Below, one piece after another: positions 21,963 through 38,754 of a stretch of 55,150 nucleotides of DNA. Numbering within the stretch: position 1 is the first letter of the stretch; each line of letters opens with the position of its first letter. Both the position numbers and the translations under genes were made by a program. Below the pieces are notes generated by a model that did no database searches, had not been told where the DNA came from, and saw only the letters and a list, made by a program, of their open reading frames with translations. The DNA comes from an uncultured Clostridia bacterium (GTDB lineage Bacteria > Bacillota > Clostridia > TANB77 > CAG-508). The stretch is taken from NCBI GenBank assembly GCA_947626295.1, contig CANQRS010000001.1:1-55150 (forward strand), read 5' to 3'.

Positions 21963-23099
21963 TTATATACTACTAATCTCGTTTGTCGTCATATCTGCAT
22001 CATCTATGTAGTTTTCTAACTTTTTAAGAACTGTTTCAATTCCTGTTCCCTTATAATATGTTGAAATTACAAAATTTAATTTTGGTGAAACTTCTATATT
22101 TTGAATTTTCTTTTTCATCCTTCTCTTGTTTGTCTTTCCTATTTCTTCTGTCGTAAAATTCTCGTTTTCCAAACTAACCTTTAACTCCTCAGTAGTCTCT
22201 TTTAAGTCATTAATAAAACCTAATGCACTTTCTGTATCTACTCCACAAAATACTATTGCAAATTTTGGTCCCATATATCTTACAAAAATATATGAATCTA
22301 TTATATTTCCTTTAATATGTTGACTCATCTCAGTTATTACTTTATTTCCTAAAGTTCGAGATATTTCATTTATTTGTTGTATATTTGAAATCTTAAACAT
22401 ACATATAGCTGAATTATCGTATTTATCTATAATCTTCTTTCCTTCTCCATATAAATATTCTGCTGAATATAAACCAGAAAATAAATCTTTTCTTACGATA
22501 CTTTCTAAGATTTTTTGATAATTCACAGCCTTTAAAACTGTAACTATATTTTCCTTTGCAATTTCAAATATTGTTATATCTATATTGTCAAAATCGTGAG
22601 GGACTCCACTTTCGATTAACCAATATCCGATATATACATTATCTATATAAAGTGGAAAAAATATTGCTGATTTTGCTCTTCCAAATTCTTGTTTTTGATA
22701 AGGTAGCTGTTCTTTTTCGTTATTTACTGTAATATATTTAGGATTTGTTGTTGAAATACTATCTTTAAATATATCAACTTCGTGCAAATTTGCTAATGTT
22801 TCCCAATGTTTTTTATCAACATTAGTAGCTTTTATAATATAATCGATTCCATCAAATATTACTATTGTCGAATATTTCAATTCATATTTTTCTAATATTA
22901 CATTATTTATTGCCTTGATTTTGTCATCTACATTCATATCGTTTCCAGTAATATTGATGAAATCTTGAATTATATTTAAACTAGTAAATCTTTTATCAAG
23001 ATTTCTAAATTCCTGTATCTTTTTGCTTATTGACATATTATATATAGTTAGTATAGCGATAATCAAAACCAATATTATTACTATTGTTACTGACCACAT
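21963..23099 (-). CDS. Membrane-anchored sensor-like protein with degenerate GGDEF domain
   Basis: N-terminal TM; [13 protein letters not shown] (for DxLTGLxNR) and [13 protein letters not shown] (for RxGGDEF): catalytic signature replaced by MGPKF. Confidence 0.6.
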
Positions 23100-23117
23100 A
23101 CAGTTTTATTACCTCCA

Positions 23118-25808
23118 CTATTTCATTTTCTTTCTCATATTATTTAAAGTATTATTCATACTATCTGAAAATCCATTATTAGAATAATTAGTTGAATATT
23201 GGTATCCCCTTTTTGGTCTCTCCCTTGTATTTCTAGCTGGTAATAATGGATATACTACTGCAGCTAAATTGCTTAGAATATTTTGAAATTCTTTTGGATA
23301 TTTATCTACCGATATCTCACATTCAATTATCTCTTCTAAATATCTTTCATATACGTCCATATCAAAAGGTATCTCTATAGGTACAACAGCATTTCTATCA
23401 AATAATTCTGTCATAAATGACATCTCTGGGTCATTGTAAAATGCCATTCCGCCTACAATAGTCTTTGCTGTTACTCCCCTTATTCTTACAGACTTATTTA
23501 TAATTATCTTTATTTTATTTTTATCAATGATATCTTTTGCTTTTAAATCCCTTAAAAATGCTGTAAAAGGTTGTATTGTAAGCACGTCCATACTCTGAAC
23601 TAAATATATTTCTTGTGAATTTTCAAAATACTGTATTGGAGTATCAAAATCACAATCTATCAAAACTGCCGAATGATTCTTTATTAAGTTTTCAAGTATA
23701 GGACCTACATTTTCTATACTACTTTCTTGTGTTGGAGGTTCAGTATATACTGTTAAATTATTTTTAACCCTTATTCCCTCTGGATTACCATTTACTAAAC
23801 TTCTTACACTTCTCGTTGCTGTTTGTCTTAAATCTTCTTCATTTTTTGTATATATATAATACGCATTTTTGTTTTTAGTTGCATCTAGTATGGCTGTATC
23901 AATTCCAGCATCAGCTAAAATTTTAGCTATATTATTTACTATAAAAGATGTTCCATTTTTGCTTGTTCCAACAAAAGTCATTACCTTTTTGCTACTTGAC
24001 AATAAACTATTATATTCACTATAATCATAATCTTCAAACTCATTTTTCTCTAATGAATTTCTTTTTGTATATAAATCATCTGAATTTCTTTCTACTTTTT
24101 TATGATGATTAAACATAGGATTTGTTTTTGGCATTTCTCTTTGAATATTTTGTTTTTGAACAGGTTTTACTTCTTCAAATGCTTCATCTTCATCCTCATC
24201 GTCAAATCCAGGTAATTGATTTTCATTTTCCAAATCATCTAATGTTGGCAATGGTTCATCATCTTCATCATCTTCAAACCCTGGTAAAACCTCATCATCT
24301 GCCAATTCAGTAGAATCCATTGTTTCTTCGTCTTCCTCATCATCAAATCCCGGTAAAATATCATCTTCATCGTCATCATCTTTTAAATTATCATATCCTA
24401 ATAAATCGTCGTCATCATCATCTAAATCTTCAAAGCCTGGTAAAGTCTCGTCATCGTCCAAGTCATCAAATCCTGGTAATTTTTCTTCTTCCTGAGATGC
24501 TCTTTTAATCTCCTCTAATTTCCTTGCTTCTTCCCTATTTTTAGCTTCATATTCTTCCAAGTCATTTATAGCCGGCAATATTGCATTACCAACATTTGAT
24601 TCATTTTCATCATCATCATCAAATCCTGGCAAAGCAGAAGCCTCTGGTTGTTCTTCTGGTAACGGATTTTTTCTTGGTCTTCCCCTTTTCTTTGGAACCT
24701 TTACTTCATTTGTTGTTTCAGGTAATGGATTCTTTCTAGGCCTTCCTCTACCTCTTTTTTTAGGTGGTTCTGGTACAACTTCTACTTTTTCAGTTGTTTC
24801 CACATCTTCAAATTCTGGCATTGACTTTGTGTTATTATCTAAATTATTAACATTTGTCTCTACTTCTTCATCATCAAAATCATCAAACATACTATTATCT
24901 AAAATATCATCTTCAAAATCAACCTTGTCCTCTATTTTAGGTTTTAAAGAAGATTTCTTTTCTGGCTCTATTTTTTTAACTAATGTTTTTTCTAATCTTG
25001 ATGGAACTACTATTGGTCTACCGCTATTAGCTTGTTTATTAGTTAATAATTTTTCACTTGTTCCAGATAATGCTCCACCCTTTGAGTTTCCACCTGATTT
25101 TGCTGTACCTTTTCTTTTTCCAGTTAATCTTTGATATTCTGGAGAACCTTGTTCAAGTACATCTTTTATTTGTTCAGGTAATATTGAAATAATTATTCTC
25201 ATTTGCTTATCATTATATTGAGAAACTATATTTCTAAAACATTCGATATATCTTTCTTCATTTTTTCCAAGCCTTTTAAAATAGCTCAAAATATGTTGCA
25301 TTTCTTCTTCACTAACATCATCTATTTTTTCAGGTTGGTATCCTGCTTCGTCTGAGTCAATCCTATAATATGCTTTTGCCTCTTTTTTTAACCTAGGCTT
25401 ATTTATTAACTTACAAACTTGGTCTGTACTTCTATCATTACCAATTAAAGCATTATATATTCCTATACCAAATAGTTTAATCAAAAACTCTTCTGACTTC
25501 ATTCTTCTTTCTGAACCTATTAAAATAATTGGTATATCATTTCCCCTAGAGTTAGTTGCTTCATCAGTTATATTATCTAATTTTTCAAATATATATTTAT
25601 CTTTTTGTTCAAAGCTTGAACTTGTAAATTCTTCTAATTCTTCATCTATTACTATTCTATCGTATGTTTTATCTCTCTGTAACTCTTTTAATATTGCGTT
25701 AAAATAATACACATTTTTAAATGATATTATCTCCTTGTACTCCTTTTGGTATTTTCTTACTATAGACGATGAAACTTTTTCATCGTGTACCGCAAATAAA
25801 ACTTTCAT
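23118..25808 (-). CDS. 896-aa protein: receiver-like N-domain, two AT-hooks, acidic LPGF(D/E)D repeat array, C-terminal TadZ/ParA-like domain with deviant P-loop
   Basis: KKRGRGRPRKNPLP and KKRGRPRKNPLP; at least 6 LPGF(D/E)D repeats; VMTFVGTSKNGTSFIVNNIAKILA (no GK[ST] lysine) and VLIDCDFD. Confidence 0.6.
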   Translation of the reverse strand: MKVLFAVHDEKVSSSIVRKYQKEYKEIISFKNVYYFNAILKELQRDKTYDRIVIDEELEEFTSSSFEQKDKYIFEKLDNITDEATNSRGNDIPIILIGSERRMKSEEFLIKLFGIGIYNALIGNDRSTDQVCKLINKPRLKKEAKAYYRIDSDEAGYQPEKIDDVSEEEMQHILSYFKRLGKNEERYIECFRNIVSQYNDKQMRIIISILPEQIKDVLEQGSPEYQRLTGKRKGTAKSGGNSKGGALSGTSEKLLTNKQANSGRPIVVPSRLEKTLVKKIEPEKKSSLKPKIEDKVDFEDDILDNSMFDDFDDEEVETNVNNLDNNTKSMPEFEDVETTEKVEVVPEPPKKRGRGRPRKNPLPETTNEVKVPKKRGRPRKNPLPEEQPEASALPGFDDDDENESNVGNAILPAINDLEEYEAKNREEARKLEEIKRASQEEEKLPGFDDLDDDETLPGFEDLDDDDDDLLGYDNLKDDDDEDDILPGFDDEEDEETMDSTELADDEVLPGFEDDEDDEPLPTLDDLENENQLPGFDDEDEDEAFEEVKPVQKQNIQREMPKTNPMFNHHKKVERNSDDLYTKRNSLEKNEFEDYDYSEYNSLLSSSKKVMTFVGTSKNGTSFIVNNIAKILADAGIDTAILDATKNKNAYYIYTKNEEDLRQTATRSVRSLVNGNPEGIRVKNNLTVYTEPPTQESSIENVGPILENLIKNHSAVLIDCDFDTPIQYFENSQEIYLVQSMDVLTIQPFTAFLRDLKAKDIIDKNKIKIIINKSVRIRGVTAKTIVGGMAFYNDPEMSFMTELFDRNAVVPIEIPFDMDVYERYLEEIIECEISVDKYPKEFQNILSNLAAVVYPLLPARNTRERPKRGYQYSTNYSNNGFSDSMNNTLNNMRKKMK
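24200..24770 (-). repeat. Coding tandem repeats (LPGFDD units 24200-24640; duplicated AT-hook unit 24655-24770)
   Basis: Recurrent AAATCCTGGTAA-type units on the plus strand; duplicated GGTAAYGGATTYTTTCT..CCTTCC unit. Confidence 0.6.
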
Positions 25809-28457: not shown

Positions 28458-30413
28458 CTAATTTGCAATCTTACTTTCTATATCTCTATTTTTTATCTCA
28501 TTAAGTAACTGTTCCACAAATTCTTCAACTTTCATACTCTCCTGTGTAGCAACATTTCTATTTCTTACTGTAATTATTTTCTTTTCATATTCGTTATCTC
28601 CAATAACTATTGCATATGGTATTTTATTAATAATGGCTTCTCTAATTTTTTTTCCAAATGATTCATTACTATAATCGACTTCTACTCTTATTTCATTTTC
28701 TTTTAGTATTTTAGCAATTTTTTCTGAATATTCTATATGTTTTTCTGAAATTGGTAATACCCTAACTTGAACTGGAGATAACCAGGTAGGTAATATCCCC
28801 TTAAACTGCTCTAATAGTAATGCTAAAAATCTCTCATATGAACCAAGTATAGCTCTATGAACCATAACTGGTATTTGTTTTTCGCCATTTTCATCGACAT
28901 AATATAATCCAAATCTTTTAGGAGTTGAAAAATCTACCTGAACAGTTGGAATTTGTATTTCTCTTCCTAAAGCATCTGTAAACATAAAATCTAGTTTTGG
29001 ACCATATAAAGCTGCTTCTCCTTCACACCACTTTGCTTCAAGCTTTAATTCATCTGAAACCTCTTGTAACATTTTTTCACATAAGTCCCAATCATCTTTA
29101 TTTCCTATATATTTCTCTGGATGCTCATAATCTCTTACTGACAAAGAAACCCAATGGTTTTTCCATAATCCCATTTTCGTATAAAAATCCCTGATTATAT
29201 TACACATATTTATAACTTCATCTTTTACTTGATCTATTCTACAAAATGAATGCCCATCTTCAATAGTAATTGCATAAACTCTTGATAATCCTCCAACTGA
29301 ACCTGGCAACTCTGCTCTATACTGTTTGTCAGATTCCATATACCTAATTGGTAAATCTTTATAACTTCTCATCTTTGATGCATATATTTGAGTATGGTGT
29401 GGACATTGAACAGGTTTTAATACGAACTCATGACCTTTAGGAGAGTTTACTCTAAATAATTCATCATTAAATTTTTGTGCATGCCCTGATGTTTCAAATA
29501 AGCTTATATTAGCAAGAGATGGACAACTTACTTTTTCAAAGCCATAATTTCTACATATTTTTTCTATTTCCTTTTGTAATTCATCTTTTATTATTGTACC
29601 TTTGGGAGTATATAAAGGTAATCCACCTCCTACATAGTCTGAAAAACAGAATAAATCTAATTCCTTTCCAATTTTCCTATGATCTCTACTTTTAGCTTCT
29701 TCCAACCTTTCTAAATATCCTTCTAATTCTTTTTTCTTAGGAAATGAAATTCCATAAATTCTTTGTAAAACTTCTCTTTTTTCATCTCCTTTCCAATATG
29801 CACTTGAAGATGAAAGTAACTTTACAAATTTCACTTTACCTGTACTTAATAAATGCGGTCCAGAACATAAATCAATAAATTCGCCTTGTTTGTAAAAAGA
29901 TATTTCGTCTTTCTCTGGTATTTCTTCAAGTAATTCTAATTTATATTTTTCCTTTGTTTCATTTATCATTTTTAAGGCTTCTTCTTTTGTTAAAGTGAAT
30001 CTTTCAATAGGAATATCTTCTTTTATTATTTTATTCATTTCTATTTCAATTCTTTCTTTATCTTCATCTGAAAAGGCTTTTTCTACTTCAAAATCATAAT
30101 AAAAGCCATTATCAATAGCTGGTCCAATCGCTAGTTTATATTCAGGAAACAATCTTTTAACCGCTTGAGCCATAATGTGAGAACTTGTGTGCCAATAAGC
30201 TTTTTTACCTTCTAAATCTTCATCATTAAATGTATGAATTACCAAATTGCAATCCTCTTGTAACTCAAATCTTAAATCTTTAATTTCGCCATTTACTTCT
30301 CCACAAGTTGCATTTCTCATTAATCCTTCACTTATTTTTTTTGCAATATCAATTATTGAAGTTCCTTTTTCTACTTCAATAATCGAATTATCTTTTAATG
30401 TAATTTTTAACAT
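28458..30413 (-). CDS. thrS: Threonyl-tRNA synthetase, full length (TGS + N2 editing + catalytic + anticodon-binding)
   Basis: 651 aa; TGS-like N-terminus; editing motifs HTSSH and DLCSGPH; Zn ligands in QCPHH, EDGHSF, VMVHRA; preceded by a Thr T-box. Confidence 0.9.
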   Translation of the reverse strand: MLKITLKDNSIIEVEKGTSIIDIAKKISEGLMRNATCGEVNGEIKDLRFELQEDCNLVIHTFNDEDLEGKKAYWHTSSHIMAQAVKRLFPEYKLAIGPAIDNGFYYDFEVEKAFSDEDKERIEIEMNKIIKEDIPIERFTLTKEEALKMINETKEKYKLELLEEIPEKDEISFYKQGEFIDLCSGPHLLSTGKVKFVKLLSSSSAYWKGDEKREVLQRIYGISFPKKKELEGYLERLEEAKSRDHRKIGKELDLFCFSDYVGGGLPLYTPKGTIIKDELQKEIEKICRNYGFEKVSCPSLANISLFETSGHAQKFNDELFRVNSPKGHEFVLKPVQCPHHTQIYASKMRSYKDLPIRYMESDKQYRAELPGSVGGLSRVYAITIEDGHSFCRIDQVKDEVINMCNIIRDFYTKMGLWKNHWVSLSVRDYEHPEKYIGNKDDWDLCEKMLQEVSDELKLEAKWCEGEAALYGPKLDFMFTDALGREIQIPTVQVDFSTPKRFGLYYVDENGEKQIPVMVHRAILGSYERFLALLLEQFKGILPTWLSPVQVRVLPISEKHIEYSEKIAKILKENEIRVEVDYSNESFGKKIREAIINKIPYAIVIGDNEYEKKIITVRNRNVATQESMKVEEFVEQLLNEIKNRDIESKIAN

Positions 30414-30439
30414 AATAAAATAAAACCTCCTTTTGATTA

Positions 30440-30706
30440 TTATATATTGTTAACAGCACTCCTAAAAGTACGTTCAACAATACTTTTAGGAGTGCTGTTA
30501 TATAGCACGGTTCCATCCTAAATTTAACTTAATTTTAGAATATGATAAATCTTACCCATATTATAATTATAATATTTTGGAGAGCTAGTTTTTCAAATAG
30601 ATTTACATAAATTGAATTTCAGCTTATATTCAATCCTCTCTGTAAGCAACCCCTATTTTACTTTTTCTCTCATTTATCATAATTATCATAAATTATATAA
30701 TATAAC
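30440..30706 (-). promoter_or_regulatory. T-box riboswitch leader, probable Thr (ACU) specifier
   Basis: Minus strand shows AGAGA and AGUA boxes, GAAAAACUAG specifier-like loop (ACT = 30589-30587), T-box-like AGGATGGAACCGTGC (about 30503-30525), and a 19-bp terminator stem 30452-30499. Confidence 0.7.
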
Positions 30707-30712
30707 TGATTA

Positions 30713-30742
30713 TATTTTAACTCTTTTTTTTTTTATTGTCAA
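30713..30742 (-). promoter_or_regulatory. Promoter of thrS
   Basis: TTGACA (30742-30737) - 18 nt - TAAAAT (30718-30713). Confidence 0.5.
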
Positions 30743-30788: not shown

Positions 30789-30824
30789 AGAGAGAAACTT
30801 TCTGTAACTAGAAAATTCCTCTCT
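30789..30824 (-). terminator. Intrinsic terminator after thrS2
   Basis: 15-bp imperfect stem AGAGAGGAATTTTCT/AGAAAGTTTCTCTCT then TTTTAATT on the minus strand. Confidence 0.6.
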
Positions 30825-30846: not shown

Positions 30847-32571
30847 CTACTCCTTACGACTAATTTTTTCTTTAATCCACTCAATAAATTCATTAACTGA
30901 CATTTTACTGAGCTCTTGACTACTATGAAGTTCTCTAATGCTGACTAGACCTTCATCAACTTCTTGTTTGCCAACAATAAGCATATAAGGAATCTTTTGA
31001 CCTCTAGCTTCACGGATTTTGTAACCGAGTTTCTCATTTCTTAAGTCAACTTCCGAACGAATCCCTTCTTTCTCAAGTTTCTGGTTTACTTCATTAGCAT
31101 AATCACAAAACGAAATGGAAATTGGAAGAATCCTTACCTGAATTGGTGCAATCCAAAGTGGAAATTCACCATTAAAATGCTCTAATATGATTCCCAAAAA
31201 TCTTTCCAATGAGCCAAATATGACTCTATGGATAATTATTGGACGTTCATTTTCGCCATTTGCATTCACATATTCAAGGTCGAATTTTATCGGTAATTGG
31301 AAATCCAGCTGTATCGTACCCATCTGCCATTCTCTACCCAAACAATCTTTCATTTGGATATCAATTTTAGGTCCATAAAAAGCACCATCTTTATCTTTAA
31401 TGGGATAATTATTATCACCATATAAATCATCCAGTACTCTTCTAAGTTCGTCTTCAGCTTTATTCCAAATCTCAATATCTCCCATAAAATCATCTGGTCT
31501 GGTAGAAAGTGAAGCCTTATATTCAAGTCCAAATGCCTTATAAAACATATCGGCAATTTCTAAAATATTCTTTATTTCACTACCAATTTGAGACTTAGAG
31601 ATAAAATTATGAGAATCATCCTGACGGAACATTCTTGTTCTTAACAGTCCATTAAGTTGTCCTGATTTTTCATTGCGGTGAATCACATCAATATCACTCA
31701 ATCGCAATGGCAACTCTCTATAACTACGTTTCTTCATTTTGTAAATCATAATTGCATTTGGACAACTCATAGGTTTCAACGCTTGCTCATTTCCATCACC
31801 ATCCTGTAAGACATACATATCTTCTTTGTAATGGTCCCAGTGTCCAGATTGTTTCCATAACTGGCTACTATTAACTTGCGGTGCGGAAAATTCTAAATAT
31901 CCCAGTTTCTTATGCTCCTTACGCCAGAAATCAATCAAGTTGTTGTATAATATCCAACCTTTAGGAAGCCAATATGGCATACCTGGTGCTGAATCTATGA
32001 AGGAGAAAAGTTCAAGTTCTCGCCCCAATTTGCGATGGTCTCTGTTTTTCATGTTCTCTAAATTTTTAAGATATTCATTCATCTCATCAGAACTCTGAAA
32101 AGCAATACCATAAATTCTCTGTAAAGATTCGTTGTTTTCGTCTCCCTTCCAATATACTGCAGATGAAGATAAAAGTTTTAGTGCCTTAATTTTACTTATT
32201 GCCAAACATTCAGACTGTTCAAACACATCAATAAAATTTCCATGCTTGAAAATAAAAACATTCTCTTCCTCTTGCATATCAATCAACTCAGCTTTGTAAT
32301 TTTCTCCTTTCTCCAACATAAAGCTTTGTACTTCAGCCTTTGGTTTAGAAATAATCTCTACTACTTTGCTATGTTTACAAATCCGTTTCATCTTTTGTTC
32401 AATCTTTCTCATATCTTCTTCAGAAAACGGCTTTTCAATAGCAAAATCGTAATAGAACATATCTCTATTTAAACCACAATCTGCAAGTTTTGATGAAGGG
32501 AACAGTTCTTTAACAGCCTGAGCCATAACTCTCGAAGCCACAATTAAAATATGGCTTTTCTGTACCAACAT
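30847..32571 (-). CDS. Second, N-terminally short threonyl-tRNA synthetase paralog (no TGS domain, editing residues replaced)
   Basis: 574 aa; aligns to ThrS from residue ~70; IVASR for HTSSH, DVFEQSE for DLCSGPH; catalytic SCPNA, RQDDSHNF, IIIHRV retained; GGAGG RBS. Confidence 0.85.
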   Translation of the reverse strand: MLVQKSHILIVASRVMAQAVKELFPSSKLADCGLNRDMFYYDFAIEKPFSEEDMRKIEQKMKRICKHSKVVEIISKPKAEVQSFMLEKGENYKAELIDMQEEENVFIFKHGNFIDVFEQSECLAISKIKALKLLSSSAVYWKGDENNESLQRIYGIAFQSSDEMNEYLKNLENMKNRDHRKLGRELELFSFIDSAPGMPYWLPKGWILYNNLIDFWRKEHKKLGYLEFSAPQVNSSQLWKQSGHWDHYKEDMYVLQDGDGNEQALKPMSCPNAIMIYKMKKRSYRELPLRLSDIDVIHRNEKSGQLNGLLRTRMFRQDDSHNFISKSQIGSEIKNILEIADMFYKAFGLEYKASLSTRPDDFMGDIEIWNKAEDELRRVLDDLYGDNNYPIKDKDGAFYGPKIDIQMKDCLGREWQMGTIQLDFQLPIKFDLEYVNANGENERPIIIHRVIFGSLERFLGIILEHFNGEFPLWIAPIQVRILPISISFCDYANEVNQKLEKEGIRSEVDLRNEKLGYKIREARGQKIPYMLIVGKQEVDEGLVSIRELHSSQELSKMSVNEFIEWIKEKISRKE

Positions 32572-32728
32572 TTTAAATTTCCTCCATTAAGATTTTTAAT
32601 TAATGTTTTCAATGTACTCCTTCGTGTTTAACATTTTAATTAGTCATTTTTTCCTCCTTAAAAATTATTTTACATAGTTGCTTTTGCTATTAAATGTGAA
32701 AAGGAGTAAATACTATGCATTGCTATTA
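32572..32728 (-). promoter_or_regulatory. thrS2 5' leader with two mini-ORFs (MTN*, MLNTKEYIENIN*) and an anti-SD element; not a T-box
   Basis: AAGGAGG-6nt-ATG ACT AAT TAA (32647-32636); ATG at 32634 to TAA 32596; ACUCCUU (32707-32701) complementary to AAGGAGG (32659-32653) and AAGGAGU (32622-32616). Confidence 0.45.
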
Positions 32729-32757
32729 ATTATAGCATTTTTTAGTGTAAAAGTCAA
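32729..32757 (-). promoter_or_regulatory. Promoter of thrS2 (extended -10)
   Basis: TTGACT (32757-32752) - 17 nt - TGcTATAAT (32734-32729). Confidence 0.6.
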
Positions 32758-32920
32758 CATAAAATCAAAAAATCAAAAAAATTTTTTATACATATGTGCA
32801 AGATTATTTTAATGAGGATAGATTAATGATAATTCAATCCGATATGAAGGAGGATACCAATTAACAAGAGATAAAAGTTATAATGCAATAATCAGGTATG
32901 ACAGTATTAATAACATTAGT

Positions 32921-32959
32921 AAAGCTATAAAATACAGATTTATCTGATTTTATAGCTTT
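32921..32959. terminator. Long hairpin between the ATP-grasp gene and thrS2
   Basis: AAAGCTATAAAATACAGAT / ATCTGATTTTATAGCTTT near-perfect inverted repeat; weak U-tract. Confidence 0.45.
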
Positions 32960-32984
32960 ATTGATTTCATACATATCATAAACT

Positions 32985-34286
32985 CTATGTAATAAATTTA
33001 AAATTATTTAATCCCTTTATTACTCTTTTTTCTAATTCATTAAAACTTATATCATTTCCCTTATATACTATATGTCCATTTGATCTACAACTTTTTGGGG
33101 CTCTTACAGCCATTTCATCAACATCGTCATATATTTGATGTTCACAATAATATGCATCCCAAATTGCAATAGGTTCTCCTATAATTTTCTTTATAACTCC
33201 TTCTTTTTCAGCCCACAAACAATGTGTTATTGTATTTATATGAGTATCTCGATCAATTTTAGGTTCATTTCCCATTGATAAATCTATTAAAATTTCTAAA
33301 TAATCATTTCCAGTAGAATGTAATAGTGATTTGTATATTGGTCCTCCTCCTAATCTAGCTCCAAATTCTAACAATACTAAATCATCTTGAAAAGTTCTAA
33401 ATTCTGTGTGTAATACATAACAACCATCTCCAAGTTTTTTATGAATTTTAGAAACATATTCTTTTGCTTTGTCTTGCAATTTTTTTGGTATCCTAGTTGG
33501 TGTAGACCATATATACTCTTCAAAATATGGTCCGTTAGAAGGAATAGGTTTGTCATGTATTGTTAATACTATTGTCTCTCCTTTATAATAAATACTTTCT
33601 ACACTTATCTCTCCAATTTTAAATGGAAAGTTTGTTTCAAACATCATTTCTCCACCAATGATTTCTTCTGCTATAAATGGAACATTTCCTTTGTCGTCGG
33701 CATATTTTAAATATAAAGCATCATTTTGATATTTTTCATTTGCAATTTTAACTAAATCATCAATTCCTTCTAGTAATTCGTTTTTATTCTCAAATCGCTT
33801 GACTAATGTTGAGCCACCTCCTATTGTCGGCTTTACAACTACAGGAAATTTTAAGTTATCACATTTAGTGCTTAAATCTCCATTTAATATTTCAAATCTA
33901 GGAACAGGAATATCTAAATCTTTGCAGAATTTTCTCATTTCGTATTTGTTTCTTCCAATTCTTACTATATTTTCATCTGGTCCTATTAAATTAAACTCCT
34001 TGCAAAGTAAACTATGTAATGGTACGCACATTTCTGAAACATTAATTATTCCATCTGGACTACCTATTTCTTTTATTTTAGAAACTATTTCATTAATATT
34101 TTCATACACTTTTTTCATAGGTACTTTTAAAATATTATCTACATAATCTTTTTGAAAATATGTATTTGTATTTTCGTCAAGCACCAATGTTATTATATAT
34201 TTATCTCTTAATTTTTTTAATTTTCTTAGATGCTCCAATCTGCTTGGGTTATGCGAATATAATACAATTATATGTTTCTTTTTCAT
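32985..34286 (-). CDS. ATP-grasp ligase (L-amino-acid-ligase-like architecture)
   Basis: FPVVVKPTIGGGSTLVKR, AEEIIGGEM, LLEFGARLGGG motifs; AGGAGGAAAAATAAA RBS. Confidence 0.7.
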   Translation of the reverse strand: MKKKHIIVLYSHNPSRLEHLRKLKKLRDKYIITLVLDENTNTYFQKDYVDNILKVPMKKVYENINEIVSKIKEIGSPDGIINVSEMCVPLHSLLCKEFNLIGPDENIVRIGRNKYEMRKFCKDLDIPVPRFEILNGDLSTKCDNLKFPVVVKPTIGGGSTLVKRFENKNELLEGIDDLVKIANEKYQNDALYLKYADDKGNVPFIAEEIIGGEMMFETNFPFKIGEISVESIYYKGETIVLTIHDKPIPSNGPYFEEYIWSTPTRIPKKLQDKAKEYVSKIHKKLGDGCYVLHTEFRTFQDDLVLLEFGARLGGGPIYKSLLHSTGNDYLEILIDLSMGNEPKIDRDTHINTITHCLWAEKEGVIKKIIGEPIAIWDAYYCEHQIYDDVDEMAVRAPKSCRSNGHIVYKGNDISFNELEKRVIKGLNNFKFIT

Positions 34287-34440
34287 TTTATTTTTCCTCC
34301 TAATAATAAAAATTTTTTAATCTTTCCATTCCCTTATATATTTATTTCATCAATTTTATTTCTAACTGTATTTGTATAGTGATTAGTTTCATTGTTTAAA
34401 ACTATTATAGAAGATTCCTTTATTTTATCGCTAATTTTTA

Positions 34441-35661
34441 TTATTTAAATATATCAGATGACAATCCATTATCTAAAACCTTTTTTACTTTCAAGCAAGA
34501 AGGATCTGAACCTACTAAACACTCATATTTACTGCAACCATAATTTAGTAATGTCTGATATACTGTACCTCTACACCCTCCATAACATTCTTTTTTCTTA
34601 AATAAATCACAATTTTTACAATCTCCTTGAATATATTTAGTTAAATTTCTAATAATTTTTAAATCTTCATTTTCTAATATGTCAATTAATCTTTTTTCAT
34701 TCATATTTCCCATAATCAAATCAATTCCCGGACAAGGAGCAATATTTCCATCAGCTTTCAAATCTACTCTAATTAGGTTTTGATAACAAGTTCCTGCAAC
34801 ATATGGCGGTTTTATCTCCCAATGTTCATAACCTTCTGAAATATCATTATCTAATATTTTTTCAAACAATTTGTTCATTTCTGATTTCGTAATTTGTAAA
34901 TTAGGATTATTTCTTGCAAAGCCTTGTAATTTCATAACTTCTATATGGCTATATATGTTCAATGCTCTAAATTGTTGAACTAATTCTGGTAAATATTTAA
35001 TATTATTTCTAGCAATAATTGATTCTACACCTAATCTTGTACATCCATCTAAAATTTCTTTATTGAATCCTATTTCTATAAGATTTTTAATAAGTTTCTT
35101 TTGTTGTTCATAAACAGTCACTGCATCTTGCTTTCTTCCCGATAAATTTTTTTGTATATTACAAAATTCTGAATATCTCTCATCCGTATTATCTACCATT
35201 GGAACATTCAATTTAACTAAGACACATATGCCTAAATCATATATTCTTTTTAAATCATCATATTTCCATAGTGTTCCATTAGTTACAAGTGTAGTACATA
35301 TTCCTTTATTTACACAATATTCTATTATATTAAATATATCTGGTGAAGTTGCAGGTTCAAAAGTTCCATTTATCGTTATAGTATTTATACCTATTTCTAT
35401 TGCTTGATCTATCCAGCTTTTCGTCTTTTTTGCCCACTCTTTATCCTTATATGGATCTATTCCATTATAATATAAATTTTCTTTGATTTCTGGTCTATCT
35501 GAAAGTTCAGAGCTACCTGCATAGCAATATGGACAAGCCCAATTACATGCTACTGGAGTATTTACTTTTAATCCTAATCTTAATAATTTATTTTCTTCAG
35601 CAATTTCATAATATTTCTCTTTAGGGGTTTCAAAACTTAGTAATTTCGGTATAGTTTTCAT
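34441..35661 (-). CDS. Radical SAM enzyme with C-terminal SPASM/twitch-like Cys cluster
   Basis: CNWACPYC (CX3CX2C) near the N-terminus; CKNCDLFKKKECYGGCRG and further Cys near the C-terminus; AAAGGAG RBS. Confidence 0.75.
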   Translation of the reverse strand: MKTIPKLLSFETPKEKYYEIAEENKLLRLGLKVNTPVACNWACPYCYAGSSELSDRPEIKENLYYNGIDPYKDKEWAKKTKSWIDQAIEIGINTITINGTFEPATSPDIFNIIEYCVNKGICTTLVTNGTLWKYDDLKRIYDLGICVLVKLNVPMVDNTDERYSEFCNIQKNLSGRKQDAVTVYEQQKKLIKNLIEIGFNKEILDGCTRLGVESIIARNNIKYLPELVQQFRALNIYSHIEVMKLQGFARNNPNLQITKSEMNKLFEKILDNDISEGYEHWEIKPPYVAGTCYQNLIRVDLKADGNIAPCPGIDLIMGNMNEKRLIDILENEDLKIIRNLTKYIQGDCKNCDLFKKKECYGGCRGTVYQTLLNYGCSKYECLVGSDPSCLKVKKVLDNGLSSDIFK

Positions 35662-35689
35662 GCTATTCTCCTTTATATATATTATTATA

Positions 35690-36428
35690 TTAAAATTTGA
35701 TTATTTTTTCCCAACTTAATTCTTCTTTTCCAAAATATCCATAATTTATTGTTTTTTGTAAATTCAAATATTTTATAATTCCAATAGGGGTTAAATCAAA
35801 TCTTTTCTTTACTTTATCAATAATTTCATCTTCTGGTATATTATTAGTTCCAAATGTATTAATATAAATTGATATTGGTTCTTTAATTCCTATTGAATAA
35901 GATACCTATAATTCACATCTGTCAGCATATTTATTTGCCACAACATTTTTTTGCAATATGTTGCATCATATATACTGTACTTCTATCTACCTTGCTAGCC
36001 TCTTTACTTGAAAAAGCTCCTCCACCATATTTTGCATATCCACCATAAGTATCTACTATTATTTTTTCCTGTAAGCCCTGTATCTCTTAAAAGTCCACCA
36101 ATAACAAATCTTCCTGTTGGATTAATTAATATTTTTGTGTTTTTATCAAAATATTCTTTTGGAATAACTTTTCTTTATTATATCGTTTTTCATTCTATTA
36201 ACATCTGTACCTTCTTCATACTGATTAGATATTAAAATTGTTTCAATTCTTTTAGGTTTCCCATTTTCATACTCAACCGTTACTTGTATTTTTCCATCAG
36301 GTCTTAAATATTCCCACTCTTTTGTTTTTCTAACTTCTGCTATTTTTTTGATAACATATGTAGTCACATAATTTGTCTGGATGTCCTTCTGTAACACTTT
36401 CTGATGTAAAATAATAGTTTTTTTGCAT
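35690..36428 (-). pseudogene. metK: S-adenosylmethionine synthetase (metK) pseudogene
   Basis: [22 protein letters not shown] then a jump to ..[28 protein letters not shown] (about 95 aa missing), at least 4 frame changes at A-runs and an in-frame TAG in C-E-L-*-VSYSIG; C-terminal ..FGKEELSWEKI recognisable. Confidence 0.85.
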
Positions 36429-36611
36429 TTCCTCTCCTTCCTTTCTTTTTTATAAAAAAGAACAAAGCTCTAAATGCTTTGCTCACAAAAAGGCACAATG
36501 GCACTGTAAATTACATAATAGTAAGCTGTTTTTTACACTTTGTGATTTCATTGCCATCATCACCTTCCTTCAATATGCTTACATTATATCAGATTTTAAC
36601 TACTTTGTAAA
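36429..36611 (-). promoter_or_regulatory. metK promoter plus structured attenuator leader (class not recognised)
   Basis: TTTACA (36611-36606) - 17 nt - TATAAT (36588-36583); P1-like GTAAGC...GCTTAC; terminator GAGCAAAGC/GCTTTGTTC (36484-36460) plus T6; TCACAAA/TTTGTGA alternative pairing. Confidence 0.5.
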
Positions 36612-36797: not shown

Positions 36798-37116
36798 TTA
36801 TGCAACTAAGCTTCTTATATTCTTTTGTTTACTCTTTATATGTAGCATTACAATAAATGTTAAATTTAGCATTAACTCCATTTTCTTTTGTCCTCTTATG
36901 AAATGGTTATTAAACATATAATCTCTATCTATTCTTCCATTTAGTCTTTCTATTCCGTTCTCTTTTTATATTTAGTTTTAAATCTTTTACTATCTCTTGC
37001 TATTGGCATAAATATTCTATAATCTGTTTCTAATGGTATCCTATATATTTTTTTCTTGTTTTTTCTCTTGTATACCTTAAACTATTATTTGCTTTATCAT
37101 ATCCTAGATATTTCGT
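36798..37116 (-). pseudogene. C-terminal remnant of a DDE transposase (IS4/IS5-like), frameshifted
   Basis: Three frames give ..LRYTREKTRKKY / IYRIPLETDYRIFMPIARDSKRFKTKYKKR / GIERLNGRIDRDYMFNNHFIRGQKKMELMLNLTFIVMLH..*; no N-terminal part. Confidence 0.6.
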
Positions 37117-37896: not shown

Positions 37897-38072
37897 TACC
37901 TTTCTCCTCCCATATATGCTTTTTTTCAACTTTTTATATCTTATATTAATTTTTTCCCATTGTCAATACATAAATCCAAAATTGTCACATCTTTATTGAC
38001 AAATCAATTCGTAACTTTTTTCAATCTTCTCTCATAAAATATAAATATACAAATATGAAAGGAGACTTTTTT

Positions 38073-38754
38073 GTGGCTAAAATTTTATTATTTAACAATG
38101 ATACAGACCGAATGGAAACATATATATTAGGCGAATCATCTCCAATGCCATATAATACCAATGGAACTCTACGAGTTCGAGAATTTAGAGGTTCAAGTAA
38201 ATCTAATATACTATGGACTACAAAAAGAACTATGCAATCTTGGAATAGTCAGCGATATATATGGGGAGCTCCTATTCCTGTAGGATTTGCATTTAAACGT
38301 CCTTACGAAGGAGGACATCGGAAATCAATCACAGCACTACTCAGGAACAGCTTTTGATGTTGGTCAAACATTAAGTAGTACCCGAAGAAGAGCTTTATGG
38401 AATAGTGCGAACTCTTCTGGTGTATGGGCTTATGTAGAACCTTATTCTTTAACTCCAACGTGGGTTCATTGGGATAAAAGATTTGGTACTCCAGCCTGTT
38501 CTTCAGGAGGATTTCCTTTACTAAGACGTGGTAGTGTAAGCAATTATGTGTGTATCGCTCAAGACGACCTAAATACACTAGGTTATTCTACTGGCGGACT
38601 TGACGGTATATTTGGTACTCAAACATATAATGCTGTAAAAGCATATCAAGCATCAGTTGGGCTATCCTCAGATGGTATAGTTGGCTGTAATACTTGGAGA
38701 GCCCTACAAGAAGCTGTTGTAGGTAAAGGTGCAACAAGTACAACTATAAACTAA
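38073..38754 (+). pseudogene. Peptidase M15 (VanY/D-Ala-D-Ala carboxypeptidase-like) with PG_binding_1 domain, +1 frame change at about 38319
   Basis: Frame 1 ends ..FKRPYEGGH; frame 2 continues GNQSQHYSGTAFDVG ... TWVHWD ... LGYSTGGLDGIFGTQTYNAVKAYQ; GTG start after AAAGGAG. Confidence 0.7.

Follow-up and report, generated by a model that had tools for sequence, protein, structure and literature searches.

Several described systems resemble parts of the locus reported here. BacD of the bacilysin cluster (bacABCDEFG), RizA of the rhizocticin cluster and TabS of the tabtoxin cluster are ATP-grasp L-amino-acid ligases (LALs); BacD and RizA use free amino acids. Cluster-encoded threonyl-tRNA synthetase (ThrRS) genes confer self-resistance in borrelidin (BorO) and obafluorin (ObaO) biosynthesis. 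Duplicated ThrRSs occur in B. subtilis (ThrS/ThrZ) and in Anabaena, where the editing-impaired T2 depends on T1 for trans-editing (Rubio et al. 2015, PMC4787780). According to the tR3D concept, tRNA-fidelity genes mark clusters for non-canonical amino acids, as BesG does with beta-ethynylserine, and ATP-grasp ligases are frequent in the amino-acid clusters so marked (Millar et al. 2026, PMC13149037).

The window, a stretch of 55,150 nt of gut-type Clostridia DNA (mean GC3 0.18 +/- 0.04), carries the two-gene core of a rare biosynthetic family, a radical-SAM (rSAM) enzyme and an LAL, beside ThrRS genes. We put the probability at roughly 0.5 that this core is a functional, reduced member of a horizontally scattered operon family with an antimetabolite product and ThrRS-based self-protection. 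A literature search found no characterised member of the rSAM/LAL family and no paper on it. The ORFs and motifs of a first-pass annotation were all found where it had placed them, on the minus strand. Its small-molecule unit, its ThrRS connection and its assignment of metK to the operon were upheld, whereas thrS2 as the immunity gene and the degeneration of the cluster were not. The features are as follows.

28458..30413, minus strand: thrS, full-length ThrRS, 651 aa, Staphylococcus/Bacillus-type, with TGS domain and intact editing site
30414..30742, minus strand: thrS promoter (30742-30714) and leader with a T-box-like antiterminator/hairpin, read by eye
30789..30824, minus strand: terminator-like hairpin 3' of thrS2 (terminator scan)
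30847..32571, minus strand: thrS2, ThrRS paralog, 574 aa (TIGR00418, 636 bits)
32572..32757, minus strand: thrS2 promoter (TTGACT-17-TATAAT, match 32757-32729) and leader of ~150 nt
32921..32959, minus strand: AT-rich hairpin directly past the ATP-grasp stop codon, AAAGCTATAAAAT...ATTTTATAGCTTT (sequence reading)
32985..34286, minus strand: ATP-grasp enzyme of the L-amino-acid-ligase type, 433 aa (PF13535)
34287..34440, minus strand: 154-nt gap, the aminotransferase site in relatives (comparison with L004, L016, L005-8 and L001)
34441..35661, minus strand: rSAM enzyme with a full SPASM domain, 406 aa (CNWACPYC and CKNC...CYGGC present)
~35690..36428, minus strand: metK pseudogene (internal deletion and frameshifts against an intact ortholog)
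36429..36611, minus strand: operon promoter (TTTACA-17-TATAAT with TG, match 36611-36583) and metK leader
~36798..36965, minus strand: DDE transposase of the IS1182 type, possible remnant of its C-terminal part (weak DDE_Tnp_1_6 match)

The rSAM and LAL core

The motifs annotated in the two enzymes were confirmed in both ORFs, those of the ATP-grasp enzyme being PVVVKPTIGGGS, EEIIGGE and LLEFGARLGGG. In a profile search of PDB, this enzyme was LAL-type and not graspetide-type, with best matches to BL00235 (3VOT; 125 bits, full length), BacD (93 bits) and RizA (76 bits). Judged from its sequence, it is an L-amino-acid ligase, as in the bacilysin, rhizocticin and tabtoxin clusters. The terminator scan did not call the AT-rich hairpin behind its stop codon. 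In the rSAM enzyme, C39/C43/C46 (CX3CX2C) and seven more cysteines were invariant in the family, and the SPASM domain had two auxiliary-cluster sites. The structural model (pLDDT 93) was nearest to anSME, SuiB, SkfB and PqqE (TM ~0.6), and the sequence scored 39 bits or less against any PDB sequence. Since only ~38 residues precede the CX3CX2C motif, the enzyme has no N-terminal RRE, and none appeared in sequence and structure comparison.

The RiPP maturases SuiB, SkfB and CteB are among the nearest rSAM folds, and a Cys-containing small ORF with a Shine-Dalgarno sequence lies at 36483-36563. Both would suit a RiPP cluster, in which a short precursor with Cys, for example the product of the 26-aa metK-leader ORF MMMAMKSQSVKNSLLLCNLQCHCAFL, is cross-linked by the SPASM enzyme. 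However, no small ORF was conserved upstream of or inside the operon in any relative. Together with the LAL-type ligase and the missing RRE, this makes a RiPP highly improbable and agrees with the small-molecule, non-RiPP unit proposed earlier.

The family is very rare and patchy: 14 loci were found in 185,579 species genomes, bacterial and archaeal, and 6 in JGI metagenomes, and in a set of 5.8 billion proteins the two enzymes accounted for no more than 59 and 35 protein clusters. An LAL-type ATP-grasp gene lay beside the rSAM gene in every locus with enough flank, and the pair is the invariant core. The accessory genes varied, and included an aminotransferase, DAHP synthase (DAHPS, alone or together with chorismate mutase), MetK, another ligase and an MFS exporter; MFS exporters occurred only in lineages without ThrRS. 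Like bacilysin, the fuller relatives add an aminotransferase (cf. BacF), an MFS exporter (cf. BacE) and shikimate/prephenate supply genes. Unlike the known LAL dipeptide clusters, the LAL partner in the window is a SPASM rSAM enzyme without a characterised homolog, the loci contain no prephenate decarboxylase, phosphonate or beta-lactam genes, and the family lives in anaerobes and archaea. Genes for DAHPS and DAHPS-chorismate mutase recurred in the family, which suggests a building block of aromatic or prephenate origin; how this would relate to threonine is not obvious.

A class I/II aminotransferase gene fills the position of the 154-nt gap in L004, L016, L005-8 and L001, and it is absent from both the window and L013. 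The cluster had been thought to be degenerating. However, dN/dS of rSAM and LAL was ~0.08 (0.08-0.15, including the window versus L013), similar to that of thrS. Because of this strong purifying selection, the two genes, which are the invariant family core, are not decaying.

ThrRS genes beside the family

Three gene orders with ThrRS were seen in Clostridia, namely rSAM-aminotransferase-LAL-thrS (L004), thrS-metK-rSAM-aminotransferase-LAL (L016) and rSAM-LAL-thrS2-thrS (the window and L013), and the linkage persisted through all of them. In Frankia, a divergently oriented ThrRS gene lay beside genes for rSAM, an amidohydrolase, PhyH, a B12-rSAM, LAL and a methyltransferase. A Methanosarcinales MAG (L029) carried an archaeal ThrRS without the editing domain (NF003068, 406 bits, positions 176-611 of 613), and in a Nanoarchaeote (L028) a ThrRS-type anticodon-binding protein preceded ligase and rSAM. 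Since ThrRS-type genes adjoin the family independently in Clostridia, Frankia and Methanosarcinales, the link to tRNA-Thr charging was supported. With chance adjacency at ~0.5-1% per lineage, we estimated P<1e-3 for three independent full ThrRS adjacencies and one ThrRS-domain protein among ~13 lineages. On the other side, ~9-10 of these ~13 lineages had no ThrRS within 10 kb.

An editing-less ThrRS occurs twice independently beside the family (the thrS2 clade and L029), and the L028 protein with its ThrRS anticodon-binding domain is encoded 5' of ligase and rSAM. These observations would also fit a tRNA-dependent pathway, in which such a ThrRS makes or preserves a non-cognate aminoacyl-tRNA-Thr that is transformed by rSAM and/or ligase, with a logic like that of Pyl (PylB rSAM, PylC ATP-grasp, PylS aaRS) or of EF-P modification (EpmA/EpmB). 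Nevertheless, we consider this very unlikely: the window contains no tRNA gene, LALs act on free amino acids, tRNA-dependent transferases of known families are missing, and the majority of family members lack any ThrRS.

In related Clostridia, the ThrRS kept linked to the operon is the full-length thrS. Its pocket has the rare residues A310, V332, Q333, S488, T489, R377Y and F461L (E. coli numbering). T489, a single position out of many examined, occurred in 2 of 118 ThrRS representatives and is common to the window thrS and the Frankia ThrRS; the cluster-adjacent ThrRS of L005-8 has L489. Position 489 is a borrelidin-resistance hotspot in E. coli, and the ThrRS of the borrelidin producer has Thr there (PMC4389257), like the linked thrS and the Frankia ThrRS. 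The Clostridial thrS was housekeeping-like, with full length, a T-box-like leader and native codon usage, so that inherited synteny could account for its adjacency. Of the T-box annotated for it, a bulged helix (AGGA-UGGAACC-GUGCU...AGCAC-UCCU) and a 20-bp hairpin were visible by eye, but Rfam reported no T-box upstream of thrS even at E<=5.

If thrS is nearby by synteny or chance, the operon may make a dipeptide of aromatic origin whose target is unrelated, and thrS2 may be a back-up for stress or starvation in the manner of B. subtilis ThrZ or Anabaena T2, the latter being a precedent (PMC4787780). The recurrence of DAHPS and DAHPS-chorismate mutase alongside the enzymes, the missing ThrRS neighbour in most lineages, the relatedness of the Clostridial loci, close enough for shared ancestry, and the occurrence of thrS2 with its own promoter, leader and terminator and also without the enzymes are all compatible with such an unlinked product. 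We regard it as possible but doubtful, because the ThrRS adjacencies exceed our chance estimate, the Clostridial linkage outlasts three gene orders, and the Frankia ThrRS context is biosynthetic, not housekeeping.

Gene identities, the spread of the family, selection, gene neighbourhoods and residue states were shown directly. For the chemistry of the operon, the target of its product and the roles of thrS and thrS2, we infer the following under the preferred reading of an antimetabolite with ThrRS-based self-protection. The rSAM enzyme would modify an amino acid or an amino-acid precursor, and the ligase would then use the modified unit to build a di- or oligopeptide, the antimetabolite to be released. 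Because ThrRS-type genes lie independently beside the family in Clostridia, Frankia and archaea, the product would most likely mimic threonine or otherwise interfere with tRNA-Thr charging. ThrRS would give target-level self-protection, and lineages without it would carry an exporter in its place. The conserved partner of the operon would be the full-length, editing-proficient thrS with a remodelled inhibitor pocket, and thrS2 is probably a conditionally expressed back-up relying on this neighbour. Precedents are the dependence of Anabaena T2 on T1 (PMC4787780) and a threonine analogue that is produced by a cluster and mischarged by ThrRS (PMC13149037). The lineages without ThrRS, the housekeeping-like thrS, the DAHPS genes, the single-position T489 signal with L489 in L005-8, the lack of a characterised family member and the need to transcribe the window operon through the pseudogene and an attenuator-like hairpin count against the antimetabolite reading.

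The thrS2 paralog

The description of thrS2 as TGS-less and editing-dead proved correct. The profile search found no TGS domain and a tRNA_SAD match under the cutoff, and H73, H77, C182 and H186 (E. coli numbering) were replaced in 11/11 members of the thrS2 clade, compared with 108-109 of 109 outgroup ThrRSs that keep them. The aminoacylation site was canonical (0/48 conserved catalytic positions changed), with L489. Identity between thrS2 and thrS was only ~40%, and the two belong to different ThrRS lineages. With a GC3 of 0.29 versus 0.18 +/- 0.04 for the window, thrS2 is compositionally foreign; it is a separately acquired auxiliary and a separately mobile module. Its promoter, leader and terminator-like hairpin were located as annotated. 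Sequence blocks of the leader were kept clade-wide irrespective of the neighbouring genes, and no Zur-type or T-box control of thrS2 was recognised.

Like Anabaena T2, thrS2 is catalytically intact by sequence, has lost the editing residues, has its own regulation and lies beside an editing-proficient ThrRS, as its clade members do in every context seen. Unlike the Anabaena and B. subtilis pairs, thrS2 and thrS come from separate lineages and thrS2 lacks TGS. The locus also shares with tR3D/BesG the idea of a ThrRS that mischarges a cluster-made threonine analogue and of a co-located translation-fidelity gene; however, the rSAM/LAL loci have whole ThrRSs or ThrRS-derived domains instead of AlaX-type deacylases, and thrS2 has lost editing rather than acquired it.

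thrS2 had been proposed as the immunity gene. As a dedicated self-resistance or building-block-charging ThrRS, it would serve a cluster making a ThrRS inhibitor or threonine antimetabolite. An extra ThrRS adjoins biosynthetic genes here, as with BorO and ObaO. In the window, L013, L030-32, L035/36 and a 5689-nt contig, thrS2 is flanked by the ligase gene and thrS; it occurs exactly where the aminotransferase is missing, and such loci are not one clade of the enzyme tree. The independent editing-less ThrRS of the Methanosarcinales cluster points the same way, as does L014, where a thrS2-clade gene and an intact metK accompany a different amino-acid cluster. However, that cluster is without the two enzymes, and thrS2 and the enzymes were found without each other in both directions. 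The most abundant clade member, P0105 (182 index blocks), neighbours a YcaO/RiPP cluster without rSAM/LAL, and the closest relatives, L004, L016 and L005-8, have rSAM and LAL alongside a full-length ThrRS but lack thrS2. Unlike the BorO and ObaO clusters, the window cluster has no PKS or NRPS, and thrS2 is not co-conserved with the enzymes. Since its catalytic pocket is canonical, no resistance signature is visible in thrS2, and loss of editing alone gives no inhibitor resistance. An immunity role for thrS2 is therefore unlikely.

The metK remnant and the operon promoter

Compared with the intact ortholog, the metK pseudogene has lost residues ~53-169, and the remainder is spread over three frames. 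In L016, metK is intact and directly upstream of rSAM, which confirms that the decayed copy belongs to the operon. On the minus strand of this region, the three top promoter matches precede the metK pseudogene, thrS2 and thrS. The promoter and attenuator assigned to metK were both recovered, the latter as a terminator-like hairpin at 36484-36460, and the metK leader of L016 shares homology with the promoter and the early part of the leader. No SAM riboswitch was found in the metK leader. The transposase remnant, annotated as an IS scar bounding the cluster, does match DDE_Tnp_1_6, but weakly and under the cutoff (E=0.018, 15.8 bits). Transcription of the window operon must cross the pseudogene and the attenuator-like hairpin.

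Layout of the region and its two enzymes

The genes lie in Clostridia-type chromosomal DNA (GC content of the window, 28%) and are flanked by ordinary genes, namely those for cyclophilin, RdgB, sortase, KsgA, acyl-CoA ligase, and glucosaminidase. Pfam and NCBIfam upheld the gene families that the first-pass annotation had assigned to thrS, thrS2, the ATP-grasp enzyme, and the radical-SAM enzyme; curated equivalog cutoffs were reached by neither of the latter two.

Features of the region
28458-30413, minus strand: thrS, full-length ThrRS, 651 aa
30847-32571, minus strand: thrS2, TGS-less ThrRS paralog, 574 aa
32985-34286, minus strand: ATP-grasp enzyme, 433 aa
34441-35661, minus strand: radical-SAM/SPASM enzyme, 406 aa
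about 35690-36428, minus strand: metK remnant, pseudogene

The region's three best minus-strand promoter matches precede the metK pseudogene, thrS2, and thrS, and terminator-like hairpins were found 3' of thrS2 and inside the metK leader, as had been proposed. The decay of metK was likewise borne out, since about residues 53-169 of the intact ortholog are missing and the remainder is distributed over three frames.

The ATP-grasp protein matched PF13535 (6e-15). When its family profile was searched against the PDB, the solved L-amino-acid ligases (LALs) ranked first, with BL00235 (3VOT) at 125 bits over the full length (49-432), BacD at 93, and RizA at 76, and the next ATP-grasp class, PurD-like, scored 48 bits. 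The protein thus has an ATP-grasp domain and is more similar, over its full length, to characterised LALs than to other ATP-grasp classes, and it is probably an LAL, as first suggested. PF18603 (LAL C-terminal domain 2) is present on many homologs in precomputed annotations and on the Frankia ligase; the window protein was unmatched at E<=0.01.

The radical-SAM protein carries PF04055 and PF13186. C39, C43, and C46 of its CX3CX2C motif, together with C292, C310, C348, C351, C359, C363, and C389, were invariant in 31 homologs, and the C-terminal 7-Cys SPASM motif corresponds to two auxiliary clusters. Its sequence relatives in the PDB are distant (<=39 bits). The structure model (pLDDT 93) was closest to the folds of anSME, SuiB, SkfB, and PqqE, with a TM of about 0.6.

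These folds raise the question of a RiPP cluster, in which the radical-SAM enzyme would be a maturase acting on a precursor peptide. This reading is disfavoured, because no conserved small ORF was found upstream of or within the operon in 13 regions, the enzyme has no N-terminal RRE (only ~38 residues stand ahead of the CX3CX2C motif), and the ligase is of the LAL type. The earlier preference for a non-RiPP product is therefore retained. The anSME/BtrN-like architecture and a neighbouring class I/II aminotransferase suggest an alcohol-to-carbonyl oxidation followed by transamination, and DAHP synthase (DAHPS) genes, with or without chorismate mutase, suggest a shikimate-derived precursor.

Both enzyme families are rare: they account for 59 and 35 clusters in a set of 5.8 billion proteins, and 14 loci of the family were located across 185,579 species genomes, with 6 from JGI metagenomes. 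The bacterial hosts include Clostridia, Bacillus, Bdellovibrionota, Arcobacteraceae, Flavobacterium, Frankia, and Syntrophaceae, and Woesearchaeota, Nanoarchaeota, and Methanosarcinales are listed on the archaeal side. The LAL-type ligase adjoins the radical-SAM gene at every locus with sufficient flank, and all other genes vary: the aminotransferase is present in L004, L016, L005-8, L001, and L029 (stored loci of relatives), DAHP synthase in L004, a DAHPS-chorismate mutase fusion in L017-19, and MetK in L016. Extra ligases and an MFS exporter occur in Bacillus, Bdellovibrionota, and Arcobacteraceae, and an amidohydrolase, a PhyH dioxygenase, a B12-radical-SAM enzyme, and a methyltransferase in Frankia. 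Since the accessories vary and the enzyme pair is constant, the window keeps exactly the invariant core.

The cluster had been described as partly degenerating. This holds for metK; the window radical-SAM and LAL genes, however, gave a dN/dS of 0.08 against those of the Clostridial relative L013 (thrS: 0.10-0.15), which indicates strong purifying selection and confines the degenerating reading to metK. Neither of these two loci has the aminotransferase, no aminotransferase-like sequence was recognised on reading the 154-nt gap 34287-34440, and their radical-SAM-LAL junctions are mutually dissimilar. In the small sample of Clostridial loci (L004, L016, L005-8, L013, L030-32, and the window), aminotransferase and thrS2 are mutually exclusive, each locus having one and not the other. 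A single ancestral event of aminotransferase loss and thrS2 gain was considered and rejected, as that clade received 4% bootstrap in the enzyme tree.

The family's largest version was seen in Bacillus sp. SM2101 (L001, 381-14113), with two small ORFs, YcaO, TfuA, a ThiF/rhodanese protein, two ATP-grasp enzymes, the radical-SAM enzyme, the aminotransferase, two further ATP-grasp enzymes, and an MFS transporter. The YcaO-TfuA pair suggests that a thioamide is formed on its product.

The proofreading-less paralog thrS2

Both ThrRS proteins passed TIGR00418 (thrS 652 and thrS2 636 bits; cutoff 384). Judged from its residues, thrS2 is predicted to be an active ThrRS: the zinc ligands C334, H385, and H511, the Thr- and ATP-binding residues, and the anticodon-binding domain are present, 0 of 48 highly conserved catalytic positions deviate, and all aminoacylation residues are canonical. 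thrS2 begins at a point equivalent to about residue 63-76 of the E. coli enzyme; no TGS domain was matched, and the SAD match was sub-threshold. The N2 editing residues H73, H77, C182, and H186 are replaced in 11/11 members of the thrS2 clade, and 108-109 of the 109 outgroup sequences retain them. Both the editing site and the TGS domain of ThrRS are thus lacking from thrS2. The clade is tight (573-574 aa, 73-86% identity); the sequences next in similarity, about 60% identical, are those of ordinary Clostridia ThrRS. The dN/dS of thrS2 was 0.03-0.07 in the strongly constrained core and 0.12-0.31 in the relaxed former editing region. The GC3 of thrS2 is 0.29, about 2.5 SD over the window mean; that of thrS, the radical-SAM gene, and the LAL gene is 0.14-0.15.

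The first-pass annotation had taken thrS2 for the immunity gene of the cluster, on the model of BorO, ObaO, and MupM. That model fails on its own co-occurrence test. The thrS2 clade occurs without the two enzymes in L009-12 and L014, and the enzymes occur without thrS2 in L004, L016, L005-8, and all non-Clostridial loci. Moreover, the thrS2 pocket is canonical and equals that of outgroup housekeeping ThrRS, the sole differences being 374 and 376 in the motif-2 loop.

In every context seen, thrS2 neighbours an editing-proficient ThrRS, and its promoter and leader are kept. The commonest member of the clade stands between a 643-aa ThrRS and a RiPP cluster of the YcaO/dehydrogenase/radical-SAM type with a Cys-rich precursor. 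This arrangement was observed in a very common metagenomic organism (L009-L012, 7524-19436), where the precursor is MKKIQVKAVKVENKKNANLKMCTCCGCGGPGVKAEKKQ and the further genes encode a 248-aa protein, YcaO, a nitroreductase-type dehydrogenase, a 460-aa radical-SAM/SPASM enzyme, and a 678-aa protein without a Pfam match. In L014 (810-12534), whose stored locus ends before its contig does, an intact metK and a 592-aa ThrRS come after the thrS2-clade gene, and beyond them lies another gene set (U32-like, PALP, Asp/Glu racemase, AsnB-like amidotransferase, methyltransferase, Ddl-type ligase, and DAHPS). Here the same accessories accompany a second amino-acid-type cluster of different make-up. The 592-aa ThrRS has D383E and S517C and is 72% identical to the cluster-adjacent ThrRS of L005-8. 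These two substitutions, shared by the L007 and L014 enzymes, were considered as a rare signature; they are too common to argue from, because they occur in 9/118 and 5/118 representatives.

The thrS2 leader is kept across the whole clade despite saturated synonymous sites and differing neighbour genes.

thrS2 leaders
window: 32572-32757, minus strand
L013: 9835-10003
L035: 122-276
L009: 9853-10003
L014: 648-812

The invariant blocks are TATAATTAA, CTCCTTTT (anti-SD-like), GTGTAAAA, TTTTTAAGGAGGAA, ACTAAT (a Thr codon plus A), and GTACATTGAAAA; AAGGAGGAA is likewise named among the conserved blocks. Neither an Rfam match, nor a significant fold, nor covariation was detected in the leader, and a structured RNA was rejected (RNAalifold -3 kcal/mol with no covarying pair; MFE z-score -0.84). 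A leader peptide M-T-N was also discarded. Its mini-ORF is present in only 3/5 leaders and is unconserved because the ATG at that spot is missing in L009 and L014. From its conservation, the leader is a putative, unclassified cis-regulatory element.

Full-length ThrRS as the conserved partner

In the Clostridial relatives, a full-length ThrRS adjoins the operon in three gene orders.

Clostridial gene orders
L004: DAHPS-rSAM-AT-LAL-thrS
L016: thrS-metK-rSAM-AT-LAL
window and L013: rSAM-LAL-thrS2-thrS
(rSAM, radical-SAM/SPASM enzyme; AT, aminotransferase)

The ThrRS of L004 and L016 is the ortholog of window thrS (79-84% identity) and not of thrS2 (about 40%). Independent cases were found in other lineages: a divergent ThrRS stands beside the radical-SAM gene in a biosynthetic context at 3/3 Frankia loci, an archaeal ThrRS core (484 aa) with the editing domain missing adjoins the aminotransferase and radical-SAM genes on a Methanosarcinales contig, and in a nanoarchaeote the gene directly upstream of the ligase and radical-SAM genes encodes 268 aa and includes a ThrRS-type anticodon-binding domain. 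By our rough estimate, 3-4 ThrRS-type cases in about 13 lineages, against a chance of ~0.5-1% per lineage, correspond to P<1e-3. The ThrRS connection of the cluster is thereby strengthened. The majority of lineages have no ThrRS neighbour, and the lineages with an MFS exporter are exactly those without ThrRS.

Near the inhibitor pocket, thrS has the rare residues A310, V332, Q333, N314, S488, T489, R377Y, and F461L, with GHAQKF in place of the motif GHWD(H/N)Y. T489 occurs in 2/118 diverse representatives and is common to window thrS and the cluster-adjacent Frankia ThrRS. Mutations of E. coli L489 raise the Ki of borrelidin 300- to 1,000-fold, and the borrelidin producer's ThrRS has Thr at position 489 (Fang et al., PMC4389257). 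A full BorO-type signature (Y312/H461/Y488/T489) in the Frankia ThrRS was rejected; T489 alone is unusual there, because the nearest actinobacterial representatives (YHYM) usually have Y-H-Y as well. The linkage of thrS to the cluster in three Clostridial gene orders and its rare pocket residues may be marks of self-resistance; T489 and its rare neighbours are suggestive of a protective role and are not proof of it.

A pure coincidence, with no functional ThrRS link, is possible because the Clostridial thrS resembles a housekeeping gene; the cluster-adjacent copy may be the sole housekeeping ThrRS in L004 and L016. The best-supported reading has three parts. The operon product would be an LAL-type amino-acid or dipeptide antimetabolite that interferes with tRNA-Thr charging, target-level protection would be tied to the full-length ThrRS, and thrS2 would be an auxiliary ThrRS that moves independently and does not proofread. 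In the last respect thrS2 may be likened to Anabaena T2, which relies on T1 for trans-editing (PMC4787780). There is a recent precedent for the idea that ThrRS can mischarge a threonine analogue made by a cluster and that genes for translational fidelity serve as markers of clusters of this kind (PMC13149037).

Two independent editing-less ThrRS forms, the thrS2 clade and the Methanosarcinales 484-aa protein, adjoin the family, which prompts the idea of a pathway coupled to tRNA-Thr across bacteria and archaea. The editing-less ThrRS and the anticodon-binding protein would then serve to charge tRNA-Thr with a non-cognate amino acid or to keep it there, and the aminoacyl-tRNA would feed the radical-SAM/ligase chemistry or a deliberate incorporation of a threonine analogue. 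This would amount to a new tRNA-dependent route for amino acids, by a logic like that of pyrrolysine or EF-P beta-lysylation. However, a pyrrolysine-like system of radical-SAM enzyme, ATP-grasp enzyme, and synthetase includes a dedicated tRNA, and ARAGORN and Rfam found no tRNA gene in the window. We regard such a pathway as very improbable. The cluster is classed as a putative LAL antimetabolite cluster with target-linked self-protection; literature searches on this pairing of enzymes, and on ThrRS in company with the ATP-grasp and radical-SAM types, returned no description or characterised member of the family.

ThrRS is an essential, drug-validated target. If the ThrRS link is functional, the family would represent uncharacterised amino-acid-derived natural products acting on ThrRS; their producers would be anaerobes and actinomycetes and would extend to DPANN and methanogen-related archaea, and the two to five genes needed are few enough for quick expression and solving. 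Resistance need not reside in the conspicuous extra synthetase beside a cluster; in this case it is the full-length copy, ordinary in appearance, that is conserved as the partner. The thrS2 clade, as a widespread and naturally proofreading-dead ThrRS, would be an amenable bacterial model in which to study how duplicated synthetases and the fidelity of translation are managed by the cell.

Leaders and surrounding sequence

T-box control of thrS had been proposed. By eye, the thrS leader (30414-30715, minus strand) contains the textbook UGGAACC antiterminator bulge in an AGGA-UGGAACC-GUGCU / AGCAC-UCCU helix, which competes with a perfect 20-bp hairpin (30450-30501, no U-tract), and a candidate ACU-A specifier. 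Rfam did not report it: neither the window and nine related loci at the gathering threshold nor the region at E<=5 gave a match to the T-box, to a SAM riboswitch, or to any further family.

The metK leader contains a 26-codon ORF with an SD (36483-36563, minus strand), MMMAMKSQSVKNSLLLCNLQCHCAFL, whose end falls at the terminator-like hairpin. An attenuation leader peptide is one possible role; no counterpart was found in L016, L014, or other relatives. The proposed IS scar remained weak (DDE_Tnp_1_6, E=0.018, sub-threshold in Pfam), and a tblastn search for it gave two uninformative plasmid matches, one under an annotated hypothetical protein and the other in a stretch without gene annotation.

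At 21963-25808 (minus strand), two large adjacent ORFs of 378 and 896 aa are without a Pfam match at E<=1e-5. At 38055-38754 (plus strand), overlapping ORFs of 100 and 155 aa resemble a single frameshifted gene; the 155-aa ORF has a peptidoglycan-binding domain, the local GC of 0.36 is well over the window mean, and the locus may be a decayed acquired cell-wall hydrolase.
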